Assembly (NCBI GenBank): GCA_021498095.1
Contig: JAIZWK010000001.1
Span: forward strand, 1,980,001 to 2,012,000
Direction of reading: 5' to 3'
Origin: Candidatus Harpocratesius repetitus
GTDB taxonomy: Archaea; Asgardarchaeota; Lokiarchaeia; Sigyniarchaeales; Promethearchaeaceae
Length of the DNA stretch: 32,000 bases
Below, piece after piece: positions 11,753 to 14,766 of the stretch (positions within the stretch are counted from its first letter, which is position 1; each line of letters begins with the position of its first letter). The notes under the pieces are model-generated. The model ran no database searches and was not told the origin of the DNA. It worked only from the letters and a program-made list of their open reading frames with translations. A program made the position numbers and the translations under genes.

Positions 11753-12337
11753 ATGTATAAAAATAAATTTTCATCTTTATATAAGTTTAAAATTGGCTTT
11801 TTATTGTTATTATCGCTTTGTTATACCCCATTCTTTGTTCAGGCTGTGAATCCACAAGATATTCCATCTCCTTCTACAGATGATGACGCACCTATTCTCC
11901 AGATGAATCTCTGGATTGAAAGTCAAGTTTCTGGAGTTATTCAAGGGAGTTCAACAACAGCAGGTAGGGAAGGTTCGATGGAAGTTCTCGGATATCATCA
12001 TCTTATCTCAACATCTCCTGATAGTACGAATCAACACTCACCTTTTCGCATTGTGAAGGTCGTTGATAAAGCAAGTCCATATTTAATGCAAGCTTTATGT
12101 AATCATGAACTACTCGTTTCAGTGGTTTTACGTTTCTATCAGAAAGATGAACTATATGGAAATTATGTGGAATTTTATCGCATTGAACTGACCAATGCTA
12201 AGTTAATTGGAATTGAAACTCATGCATTAGTATCAGGAGAACTAACAGAAACTATCTCTTTAAATTATGAGTCGATTTCTTGGATTTGGGTAGAAGATGG
12301 AATTGAATATACAGAAACTGTAGGTGATGTTTTCTAA
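11753..12337 (+). CDS. hcp: Hcp/TssD-family tube protein homolog with N-terminal signal peptide
   Basis: Residues ~50-194 follow the Hcp pattern: G-x-I-x-G...GREGSMEVLGYHH...HSPFRIVKVVDKASPYLMQAL...E-x-L-x-x-V-x-LRFY...FYRIELTNA...ETISLNYESISW. The N-terminus is basic, then hydrophobic, ending in VQA. Confidence 0.85.
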   Translation: MYKNKFSSLYKFKIGFLLLLSLCYTPFFVQAVNPQDIPSPSTDDDAPILQMNLWIESQVSGVIQGSSTTAGREGSMEVLGYHHLISTSPDSTNQHSPFRIVKVVDKASPYLMQALCNHELLVSVVLRFYQKDELYGNYVEFYRIELTNAKLIGIETHALVSGELTETISLNYESISWIWVEDGIEYTETVGDVF

Positions 12338-12381: not shown

Positions 12382-13119
12382 TTGATAAAAATGAGAAATT
12401 ATAAAAATTTCACCCAGATTTGCCAACTATGGCTATTTATTTTTACTATTCTATCATCTGGTATGATCTTAAGTAGTTCAGCGTATGATGGTGTGATTAT
12501 TCCTATAAAAAATGCTACACATTATAATTTCTCTGTAATTGTTGTATATGATGTAAATTTGGAAAGCATTTTTTCATTCACAGACAGGAAAGAAGATTCA
12601 TTTGTAACAATTTTGCAATTCTGTGTTGGAGATAAGAATATTGGAATAATGCTATTTACAGTTGATCAAGGTAGTTATTCTTGTAGGTATTTGCTCGGAT
12701 CATTTGATTCATCATTATCGGTATGGGAACAAGGAGCAAAGAACACTCATTTTCAAATATTAGATGAACAAACTATTCAATTCACATTCTTAGAATTAAG
12801 TCCTCAAATTGTATCTTCAGAATTATGCGTATATATTTTAGCATTCACAACTTCTGATTCACCAGAATCGGTAAAAAGCAATTTATCCACCTATTTGGAT
12901 AGTTATCATTCTGCAATTAAAGAATCTCAAAAAATGAGTGAACCTATTTTTAATGAATATAACCAGACTTCTTCAAATATCGGTTCTGATAATTCTACTG
13001 ATAGTAGCCCCGCCAATGATGAAAAATTTAGCATAAATGGGTTTCATAGTTTTACAGTTGTATGTATTTTAACTTTAATTGTGATAATATGGAAAATGAA
13101 AACGAAAGAGAAAATGTAA
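12382..13119 (+). CDS. Secreted, C-terminally anchored surface (glyco)protein with CTERM-like sorting signal
   Basis: Signal peptide ending SSA (likely start ATG 12391). Several N-x-S/T sequons (NAT, NFS, NLS, NQT, NST), a Ser/Thr/Asn-rich linker, then INGF, a TM helix and a basic tail KMKTKEKM. Confidence 0.7.
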   Translation: MIKMRNYKNFTQICQLWLFIFTILSSGMILSSSAYDGVIIPIKNATHYNFSVIVVYDVNLESIFSFTDRKEDSFVTILQFCVGDKNIGIMLFTVDQGSYSCRYLLGSFDSSLSVWEQGAKNTHFQILDEQTIQFTFLELSPQIVSSELCVYILAFTTSDSPESVKSNLSTYLDSYHSAIKESQKMSEPIFNEYNQTSSNIGSDNSTDSSPANDEKFSINGFHSFTVVCILTLIVIIWKMKTKEKM

Positions 13120-13214: not shown

Positions 13215-13502
13215 TTATTGGGCTGCTAAAATATCTGCAGCTGTGATTCGCTTTCGCTTTTCAGCTTTGACAATTTTCAAAGCATCCTTAGTTAATTTTG
13301 TTCCTACTTTTTCTAGTTGCTTAATTAACATGGTTACTGCATCTTCTGCAACTAATTCTGCACCTTCCGCTTTCATTAATCGACGAATAGGTGCTTTGGC
13401 AATATGTCCTCCACTCTTTGATGAAGATTTCTTCTTAGAAGCCGCTTTTTTTGGTGCTGCTTTCTTTTTCGGCTTCGCTTTACTTACTTTTCTCTTAGCC
13501 AT
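13215..13502 (-). CDS. Archaeal histone (HMf-type fold) with Lys-rich N-terminal tail
   Basis: Residues 33-95 (IAKAPIRRLMKAEGAELVAEDA...RKRITAAD) match the HMf fold, including the R-x6-D salt bridge. Residues 1-32 form a tail with 13 Lys. Confidence 0.93.
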   Translation of the reverse strand: MAKRKVSKAKPKKKAAPKKAASKKKSSSKSGGHIAKAPIRRLMKAEGAELVAEDAVTMLIKQLEKVGTKLTKDALKIVKAEKRKRITAADILAAQ

Positions 13503-13677
13503 AATATATCACTTTTGTTTGATTTATGATAAAAAAAATTCTCCGCAAAAAGGAGTTAACTTCATATACTCCTTATTTTGATTAACTCATTTTGCACTTT
13601 TAAATGTTGTCGCCTTTGGGTGAAATTCCTTCCACACTTTTCCATCTCCTCCGAATTTTTCCCGACAAATAACGACT

Positions 13678-14766
13678 ATGATTTTTAAATTAATTATCCA
13701 AATAAGCTCGTGCATCATAAGATGTGAATTCATTTATACTTCAAGCACTAAGTATAATTTGTATATGAAAGATTATGCTCTTATTTATAACCCCATTGCA
13801 GCTGCAGGAAAGACCAAAAAAAAATTTGATCTTGCAGTAAAAACTCTTGAAAATTTGAATGTTTCTTTTGATTTATTCAAAACTGAACATTTTGGCCATG
13901 CTATTGAATTAGGTGAAACTTTAGCTAAAGATGGATATCGTGTTATTGCAGCTGGTGGAGATGGAACATGTAATGAAGTATTAAATGGTGTAATTGCATC
14001 AAAAACGAATGTTTTATTGGGGTTTATTCCAATTGGAACCGGTAATGATATTCCTGGTGCTGTAGGTTACGCACCAAAACAAGTAAAGCGCGCTTGTGAA
14101 ATAATTGCATCAGGTGAAAGTGGACCTGTCGATATTGGCTTATCTCTAAATTCAACTGGTGAAAAACGGTACTTTTTAGGAATTGGAAGCCAAGGATTTG
14201 ATGCTGAAGTAACTAAACGAACCAATGAAGGTTCAAAAATGCTCCCAGGAACGTGGAATTACATTGCCTCAGTTGTAAGATCTGTATTTGGCTTTAAAAA
14301 ACGACAAATACGCGTTACTTTAGATAACGGAACCTATATAGGTGAATGCAATTTGGTAGCTGTAGGCAATGGAAAAACTTATGGGGGTTTTATGTATATG
14401 TGCCCTCGAGCGGATGTTCATGATGGGTTATTTCACATTTCTATAGTTAATATGGGTAGATTTGAGTTATTATATAAGTTTAACACAATGTATTCTAAAA
14501 CATTGCATCCAGATCGGCATATAAAAGAATTTTTCAGTCGCACAGTTAAGATCGAAATGTTTTCTCAAGATGATCCTTCTTATATTGCCCAAGTTGATGG
14601 TGAAATCATAGGGGATTTACCCATTCAATATGAATGCATAAAAGATGGTTATACATTCATCAAACCGCGAGAAGATGAAGCCGAAAAGTGGTTTAAGGAA
14701 CGTTATGGAAAAAAATTCTTTAAATATGTAGAACGATTAAAGAAAAATGGAATTGATTATTATTAA
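13678..14766 (+). CDS. Diacylglycerol/lipid kinase family protein (YegS/DgkB-like)
   Basis: IYNP-x-AAAG, AAGGDGTCNEV, IPIGTGND, GIGSQGFDA, VGNGKTYGG, VDGE. Likely true start is ATG 13765, with TTTATA about 27 nt upstream. Confidence 0.9.
   Translation: MIFKLIIQISSCIIRCEFIYTSSTKYNLYMKDYALIYNPIAAAGKTKKKFDLAVKTLENLNVSFDLFKTEHFGHAIELGETLAKDGYRVIAAGGDGTCNEVLNGVIASKTNVLLGFIPIGTGNDIPGAVGYAPKQVKRACEIIASGESGPVDIGLSLNSTGEKRYFLGIGSQGFDAEVTKRTNEGSKMLPGTWNYIASVVRSVFGFKKRQIRVTLDNGTYIGECNLVAVGNGKTYGGFMYMCPRADVHDGLFHISIVNMGRFELLYKFNTMYSKTLHPDRHIKEFFSRTVKIEMFSQDDPSYIAQVDGEIIGDLPIQYECIKDGYTFIKPREDEAEKWFKERYGKKFFKYVERLKKNGIDYY

Follow-up and report, generated by a model that had tools for sequence, protein, structure and literature searches.

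A tailed histone of the HLoB family

The window (the whole 32,000-nucleotide stretch of DNA that was analysed) contains a gene on the minus strand whose product, judged from its sequence, belongs to HLoB, a family of tailed nucleosomal histones in Lokiarchaeia (Promethearchaeia). In our reading, to which we give a probability of about 85%, a dimer of the histone fold bends DNA, and a disordered, modifiable N-terminal tail with a net charge of +14 acts mainly by that charge. The features of the gene and of its leader are collected in Table 1. The window lies within a single 4.36 Mb contig of a metagenome-assembled genome that is 93.6% complete and has 31% G+C.

Table 1. Coordinates of the tailed histone gene, its subdivisions and the elements of its leader, numbered from the first nucleotide of the window.
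Feature	Position	Strand	Observations
Coding sequence of the tailed histone, HLoB-family member	13215..13502	(-)	95 amino acids plus stop; open reading frame and translation; Pfam, NCBIfam and PDB matches; clade in tree
N-terminal tail, residues 1-35, up to the KAPIRRLM motif	13398..13502	(-)	composition, pLDDT, rank in proteome, in-frame indels and dN/dS
Residues 1-32 of the tail, up to GG	13407-13502	(-)	rich in Lys, Ala, Pro and Ser
KKAAPKKAAS motif, residues 13-22	13437..13466	(-)	identical in the HLoB.1 tail of B35, nearly so in HLoB.2
Histone fold, residues 36-95 (helix 1, loop 1, helix 2, loop 2, short helix 3)	13218..13397	(-)	HMM matches over residues 36-94, two-copy model, family-invariant residues
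Loop 2 motif KRKRIT, residues 82-87	13242..13259	(-)	equivalents of R52 and K53 retained, equivalent of T54 is Arg
In-frame TGA, two codons 5' of the ATG	13509..13511	(-)	rules out a longer N-terminus
GTGAT, Shine-Dalgarno variant directly 5' of the ATG	13508..13512	(-)	genome-wide peak; before many HLoB genes as AAGTGAT(T)ATT
GCGGAG box, displaced, 44 nt upstream of the ATG	13541..13546	(-)	CGGAG box before 20 of 23 HLoB loci, 7 genera
Hairpin AAGGAGT-(11 nt)-ACTCCTT, directly 5' of the GCGGAG box	13550..13574	(-)	compensatory changes, z score against shuffles
ACATTTAAAAG, consensus archaeal TATA-like box	13597..13607	(-)	conserved in three genus orthologs; strand inferred

Tailed Asgard histones were noted in 2018 (PMC6136690) and 2024 (PMC11390915), and HLoA, HLoB and HLoC were defined by Cho et al. 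2026 (bioRxiv 10.64898/2026.07.02.735847). The gene is an example of a kind of histone already described and partly characterised in cultured relatives (2026), not a discovery. What is new lies in the comparative details, i.e. a range of tail lengths from 6 to 51 residues, fast change of the tail, the MAKK and APKK motifs, the departures from HMfB residues and the layout of the leader.

The genome has eight histone-fold genes matching PF00808, five of the untailed 'FAWSP' type (HLoA-like) and three of the tailed 'KAPIRRLM' type, whose tails measure 24, 35 (this gene) and 51 residues. We built a maximum-likelihood tree on the fold region only. It splits the HLoB type from the HLoA type with support 100/97, and places this gene with orthologs from its own genus (98/88 and 87/75), within the group of HLoB.1 and HLoB.2 (87/84). 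The long-tailed paralog of the genome groups with HLoB.3 (81/98). By putting the gene in the HLoB clade the tree bears out the sequence-only reading, which had taken it for a rare tailed histone of Asgard type. The reference sequences HLoB.1, HLoB.2 and HLoB.3 of Ca. Lokiarchaeum ossiferum B35 were recovered from genome G007, and are letter-identical to those in Table S2 of Cho et al. 2026.

Other properties of the protein point the same way. Its C-terminus, RKRITAADILAAQ, matches the epitope of the anti-HLoB antibody, RKRVTAADVIAAE, at 9 of 13 positions, with conservative differences at the others. Cho et al. 2026 describe HLoB tails as having more than 30% Lys, a length of about 16-32 residues and a pI of about 10.5; here we find 41% Lys, a pI of 10.65 for the whole protein and a pLDDT below 50 in the tail. 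The HLoC N-terminal peptide encoded by this genome is exactly that listed for Ca. Harpocratesius repetitus FW102, family MK-D1, and differs from those of MK-D1, B35 and B36 (Cho et al. 2026). The exact protein sequence of the tailed histone does not occur in the available part of the tables of that preprint.

The nearest characterised proteins are HLoB.1 and HLoB.2 of B35 (Cho et al. 2026), which belong to the same clade and have 60-67% identity to this histone. All three have a MAKK-type start, a tail of Lys, Ala and Pro with the KKAAPKKAAS motif (exact in HLoB.1), a helix 1 of the YIAKAPIRRLMK type, KRKR-x-T in loop 2, and a short helix 3 ending in AAE or AAQ. They differ in the length of the tail up to the KAP motif, 35 residues here versus 28 in HLoB.1 and HLoB.2, and in the junction, which is a Ser-rich stretch followed by GGH here and RS[TA]Y in the other two. 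Unlike HLoB.1 and HLoB.2, this gene belongs to a genus-specific orthogroup with conserved neighbours of its own, in an uncultured organism.

Where translation starts

The only workable start codon in this frame is ATG 13502. The in-frame TGA just upstream closes the frame on that side, and there is no in-frame ATG, GTG or TTG between ATG 13502 and Met43, which lies in helix 1. The start had been placed at 13502 with the next Met inside helix 1 from inspection of the letters, and that assignment stands. Within the family, 71 of 78 distinct members begin with MA and 62 of 78 with MAKK.

In many relatives the string GTGATTATT lies immediately 5' of the ATG, with its GTG in frame, so that a GTG three codons upstream was a candidate for the true start. 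In this gene the equivalent string is GTGATATATT. It has a one-nucleotide insertion that puts the GTG out of frame and creates the in-frame TGA. The GTG being out of frame here, the conserved element cannot be a start codon, and we rejected this candidate.

If translation began downstream instead, the tail would not be made and the real product would be a tailless histone. This can hardly be correct. The next start, Met43, would remove the invariant KAPIRR segment that contacts DNA, and the MAKK start is kept across the family. The stop just 5' of ATG 13502 is accompanied by a variant ribosome-binding site at the right distance, and N-terminal HLoB tail peptides have been seen by mass spectrometry in relatives (Cho et al. 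2026). Among these is peptide 2-10 of HLoB.2, without its initiator Met, detected in cultured relatives (Cho et al. 2026). The histone would thus be translated from ATG 13502, and the initiator Met is probably removed to give an N-terminus AKRK....

Composition and evolution of the tail

The first 32 residues contain 13 Lys (41%), one Arg and six Ser, have no Asp or Glu, and end in GG. The composition had been given before as 13 Lys, one Arg, several Ser, KKAAPKK-like repeats and a GG junction to the fold, and translation confirms it. Taken up to the KAPIRRLM motif the tail has 35 residues, a net charge of +14 and a pI of 11.6, compared with 10.65 for the whole protein. In the AlphaFold model pLDDT is below 50 over residues 6-31, so the tail is predicted to be disordered.

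We compared the N-terminus with those of 3,636 non-overlapping open reading frames of the genome. The mean number of Lys in the first 32 residues is 3.0 (SD 1.9); 13 Lys gives a tied rank of 3-6, and only six of the reading frames reach that number. The Lys-rich tail is a real outlier, even for a genome with 31% G+C. Unrelated reading frames of 125-420 amino acids (C1:4357228, 890430, 2345087, 1649813, 573655 and 4067770) also have N-termini rich in Lys, Ser or Thr, with 11-15 Lys in the first 32 residues and often a MPAKK or MAKK start. A wider tendency towards basic N-terminal tails thus seems to exist in this proteome, not confined to histones.

A KAPIRRLM-type histone with a tail is present in all 14 genomes of the family. 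Tail lengths form a continuum of 6 to 51 residues, the median being about 21, and within the genus the lengths of 35, 30 and 23 residues differ by in-frame indels. Comparison with the closest ortholog in the genus gives dN/dS of about 0.26 for the tail versus 0.05 for the fold. By this estimate, made on few codons, the rate of change in this genus is about 5 times higher in the tail than in the fold. In a near-identical relative 5 of 32 tail positions are changed, as against 1 of 63 in the fold. That relative, the closest one, has HPP where this tail has its SSS run.

Some properties of the tail persist nonetheless. Of 78 family tails, 40 have no acidic residue, 13 contain KKAAPKK and 29 contain APKK. 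Across the family, then, sequence comparison indicates that the tail is retained and is basic, and that outside the MAKK end and the APKK/KKAAPKK motifs its composition is conserved rather than its sequence. Conservation of the tail had been put forward as a check. The tail is present in all 14 genomes and stays basic, whereas sequence and length are poorly kept. Conservation at the level of composition fits a mainly electrostatic role. The poor conservation of sequence and length speaks against marks at specific sites other than those in the MAKK end and the APKK motif.

Tandem Repeats Finder detected no tandem repeat in the tail at the DNA level. A recent duplication had been considered as the origin of KKAAP and KKAAS, and is ruled out by this result.

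The variability of the tail might suggest that it has no function of its own, i.e. that it is a tolerated low-complexity by-product of an AT-rich genome in which stretches of AAA and AAG codons change by slippage. A length that ranges so widely in the family and varies inside one genus would agree with this, as would the poorly conserved sequence and the several unrelated proteins of the genome that also start Lys-rich. Yet the dN/dS of the tail is not near 1, even if few codons contribute to it. Moreover, about half of the tails exclude acidic residues, the MAKK start and the APKK motif recur in different genera, and no tandem repeat is seen at the DNA level. In relatives the tail lysines carry modifications (Cho et al. 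2026). We therefore regard a neutral tail as very unlikely.

The histone fold and its departures from HMfB

Residues 36-94 match PF00808 with E=2.5e-10 and 40.9 bits against a cut-off of 21.4. The match to the NCBIfam archaeal histone model (archaea_histone, NF043032) scores 50.2 bits, only just above its cut-off of 50. The core histone family PF00125 gives 31.0 bits against a cut-off of 26.4, which is weaker than PF00808, and the tail portion of that alignment is of low complexity. The nearest relatives of solved structure are HMfA and HMfB, with E=7e-8 to 9e-7.

We used HMfB numbering for the fold, obtained by subtracting 31 from the residue number of the protein (the offset of the HMMER alignment), and a family set of 78 distinct members. 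The equivalents of HMfB R10, Gly16, R52, K53 and D59 are R41, G47, R83, K84 and D90. All are present, and are invariant or nearly so in the 78 members. The protein has the same length register as HMfB and HMfA of Methanothermus fervidus (PDB 1a7w, 1b67, 5t5k), and its predicted handshake dimer is of the same type as theirs.

There are also differences from tailless HMfB besides the tail itself. R19 is replaced by Leu in 77 of 78 members, the position being always Leu or Ile; here it is residue 50 (13353-13355). In loop 2, R52 and K53 are each kept in 78 of 78 members. T54 is Arg or Lys in all 78 (Arg in 72, Lys in 6), and is Arg at residue 85 (13248-13250) in this protein. It seems from these substitutions that the loop arginine contacting the groove has moved from L1 to L2 relative to HMfB. 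Gly9 is Arg in all or nearly all of the family. His at position 49 occurs in none of the 78 members and is Ala in this protein, where Leu62 is also Ala; the hydrophobic residue at 46 and Asp59 are kept. Helix 3 is shorter by five residues, with 5 residues after the equivalent of the conserved Asp59 compared with 10 in HMfB, and 59 of 78 members have 5-6 residues there. On the family alignment these departures from HMfB are family traits and not peculiar to this gene.

Henneman et al. 2018 (PMC6136690) described the interface of the hypernucleosome in terms of a His49-Asp59 contact, hydrophobic residues at 46 and 62, and an R19/T54 pair, and deemed the His49-Asp59 contact crucial for contacts between dimers and for tetramers. 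That combination does not occur in this protein. Given the missing His49 and R19 and the short helix 3, HMfB-like assembly into a stacked hypernucleosome cannot be assumed. The fold had earlier been described as an intact one of HMf type. As a fold it is so by the matches to PF00808, NF043032, HMfA and HMfB, but the description does not extend to the functional residues, with Leu for R19, Arg for T54, Ala for His49 and a short helix 3.

Histone dimers are well known as solved structures. We modeled two copies of residues 30-95, which gave a score of 0.87; the best of three controls scored 0.00. Among 30 proteins solved as pairs of one chain, 20 attain the mark used for this score, compared with 1 among 23 solved as single chains; these counts are rough owing to a custom alignment. 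At least 94% of contacts are common to the runs, and pLDDT of the partner is at least 89. Helix 2 packs on helix 2 at residues 63, 66 and 67, and loop 1 meets loop 2 at residues 51-52 and 86-87. The AF2 model of the monomer merges helices 1 and 2 into one helix, and the loop between them is resolved in the two-copy model. The predicted handshake dimer may owe its pass to memory of solved histone dimers, and we read it as a likeness to them and not as binding.

A proposed role for fold and tail

Putting fold and tail together, residues 36-95 would pair head to tail with a second histone fold, from the same protein or from a paralog, and the dimer would bind and bend about 30 bp of DNA. The likely points of contact are the invariant RR of helix 1, the KRKR of loop 2 and the Arg-Asp clamp. 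Residues 1-35 would leave the dimer beside the DNA as a disordered polycation of charge +14. This may act mainly by charge, either neutralising and gripping DNA in cis or bridging in trans. Methylation and reversible acetylation of the tail lysines could then tune that charge. We infer both the mechanism of DNA contact and the regulatory role.

The features of the interface might alternatively mean that this paralog is a specialised variant with no part in bulk packaging, capping or interrupting polymers or favouring open, unstacked assemblies at particular loci or under particular conditions. The family-wide lack of His49 and the short helix 3 would suit such a role, since the His49-Asp59 pair is crucial to dimer-dimer contact (Henneman et al. 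2018, PMC6136690). Another Asgard histone forms open, unstacked assemblies in which its authors suggest there is room for tails, this genome retains three tailed paralogs with tails of differing length, and the published model of the nucleosome has only 2 HLoB with 6 HLoA (Cho et al. 2026). But precisely because the deviations from HMfB are shared by the whole family they do not single out this paralog, and we think a specialised role for it rather unlikely. An HLoB histone whose fold packages DNA, with a tail that acts by charge, is the reading we prefer.

Modification of the tail

HLoB is among the most abundant proteins of the cultured organisms and is co-localised with the nucleoid. Its tail carries methyl-lysine by mass spectrometry, with one possible acetylation, and in vitro LoHAT2 acetylates tail peptides while the sirtuin LoSIR2b deacetylates them (all Cho et al. 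2026). Abundance, nucleoid localisation and tail modification were shown for B35, B36 and HC1 only (Cho et al. 2026). The same work detected no phosphorylation on any archaeal histone, nor ubiquitination or trimethylation, and found no SET writers, other methyl writers or reader domains.

In the present genome, which is 93.6% complete, we find two SIR2 genes, at C1:219666 and C1:2989690, and three to four matches to deacetylase families, and no SET-domain gene. This agrees with the survey of Cho et al. 2026. The suggestion that the tail is a substrate for acetylation, methylation or phosphorylation is thus supported for the first two by HLoB of relatives. Phosphorylation does not fare so well, given that none was detected on any archaeal histone (Cho et al. 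2026) and that the run of Ser is not kept. The further suggestion that the tail modulates hypernucleosome stacking finds no support, as marks had little effect on stacking in simulations (Cho et al. 2026).

Relation to other histone tails

Lys-rich N-terminal tails are also found on two nucleosomal histones of other Asgard archaea, HA of Heimdallarchaeota/Hodarchaeales LC_3 and HMpB of Ca. Margulisarchaeum peptidiphilum HC1. These belong to another Asgard lineage and, it appears, another family, and their tail sequences cannot be aligned with this one. For HA, Henneman et al. 2018 (PMC6136690) proposed that arginines beside helix 1 direct the tail as it passes through the gyres of DNA. HMpB tails too are methylated (Cho et al. 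2026).

The tail resembles those of eukaryotic H4 and H2B, and the C-terminal domain of H1, in being a basic, disordered extension on a DNA-packaging protein. The H3 and H4 tails of eukaryotes are conserved at the level of single residues; unlike them, this tail keeps only composition and short motifs. The string KRKRITAADI of loop 2 and helix 3 is one that we take to resemble KRKTVTAMDV of H4. A search for the winged-helix globular domain of H1 gave no Pfam match down to E=1. Cho et al. 2026 state that archaeal and eukaryotic histone tails lack sequence homology. The likeness to H2B and H1 tails that had been remarked on holds for composition and goes no further.

Tailed Asgard histones bear on the origin of chromatin regulation in eukaryotes, a point already argued from cultured Lokiarchaeia and Hodarchaeales. 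To this the gene adds one long-tailed member from an uncultured genus. The change in tail length, the motifs, the departures at the interface and the pattern of the leader could help in choosing constructs and controls for the study of chromatin in vitro.

The 5' leader

The sequence between the ATG and the TATA-like box is organized in a way that recurs upstream of other HLoB genes. Read from the promoter side, the layout at 13503-13607 (-) and at loci L010-L029, in 7 genera, is a TATA-like box, a hairpin of variable sequence, CGGAG(G)A, an A/T-rich spacer, AAGTGAT(T)ATT and the ATG. UTRs and promoters are not mentioned in the preprint on HLoB (Cho et al. 2026).

The element nearest to the start, GTGAT, peaks genome-wide between -10 and -6, in front of 105 genes, and three copies of the 16S-type end GGATCACCTCC are present in the genome. 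The CGGAG(G) box of HLoB loci occupies one of two positions. It lies either at ribosome-binding distance, -14 to -16, or at -25 to -43 with a second site, AAGTGAT(T)ATT, at -9. In the paralog C1:600526 the GCGGAG box is 32 nt from the ATG, which like the 44 nt here is too far for a normal ribosome site. Few other genes (6 of 3,190) have GCGGAG upstream, and in its displaced position the box precedes only the two HLoB genes, apart from one unrelated reading frame of 230 amino acids (-48). It had been a candidate for a mark of a histone regulon. This we ruled out, as a few other genes also carry it at the usual distance for ribosome binding; going by their first residues alone, two of these genes look ribosomal.

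The hairpin has compensatory changes in 4 of 9 pairs among the three genus orthologs. The 42 nt 5' of the CGGAG box fold better than shuffled sequences, with z=-1.9 here and a mean z of -1.9 over 20 loci, 10 of which are below -1.5; these loci are kin and not independent. A search of Rfam placed no family in the leader, its two matches falling far below gathering scores. It is possible that the hairpin forms a stem-loop at the 5' terminus of the mRNA, which we offer as a lead and not as a result. The consensus TATA-like box is 40-70 nt upstream of the CGGAG box at HLoB loci, and in this gene ACATTTAAAAG is likely to be the promoter of the histone, although the divergent DAG-kinase-like gene could use the box instead.

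The leader and the interface can be drawn together in a broader proposal, in which HLoB histones have given up the HMfB-type tetramer and stacking contacts in exchange for the tail, the three tailed paralogs form a set graded in packing, and dosage is set post-transcriptionally via the leader. The absence of His49, the short helix 3 and the shift of the loop Arg from L1 to L2 are evidence for a trade of stacking contacts against a polycationic tail. If the proposal were true, the three tails of 24, 35 and 51 residues would fix how tightly or openly chromatin packs. A terminal hairpin, a displaced GCGGAG box and a second ribosome site, GUGAU, would together control histone dosage at a post-transcriptional level. 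Taken as a whole we judge this to be unlikely and put it forward as speculation; the simpler reading of a DNA-packaging HLoB dimer with an electrostatic tail is preferred.

Genomic neighbourhood

The histone gene is surrounded by genes for an HD hydrolase, a GDPD, a DAG-kinase/YegS-like enzyme, a UPF0029 protein and a GH3 glycosidase. We see no functional link between the histone and these neighbours. The DAG-kinase-like and GDPD neighbours are common to the genus orthologs.

Two further genes lie nearby on the opposite strand. The first (11753-12337, +) encodes a 194-amino-acid protein with an N-terminal hydrophobic segment and a match to the type VI secretion tube protein Hcp (PF05638, E=3.7e-25). 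To our knowledge an Hcp-like protein is unusual in an Asgard archaeon. The second (12382-13119, +) follows it and encodes a protein of 245 amino acids with hydrophobic segments at the N- and C-termini and no Pfam match. Genome G006, of the same genus, has neither gene at this position, and there the GDPD gene adjoins the histone.

Other histone genes lie at some distance on the same contig. An HLoA-type gene (C1:1979545-1979736, about 0.3 kb before the window) is 14 kb from this HLoB, and an HLoC (C1:1965341-1965418) is 28 kb away. The spacing of HLoA to HLoB, about 13 kb, is the same in G006 (C5:36297 and C5:49377).

The divergent DAG-kinase/YegS-like reading frame is listed at 13678-14766 (+), but its homologs align only from residue 18-28. 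The listed start is probably too early, and the Met at residue 30 (13765) is a likelier one. With the start at 13765 the divergent intergenic region would widen to about 260 nt.
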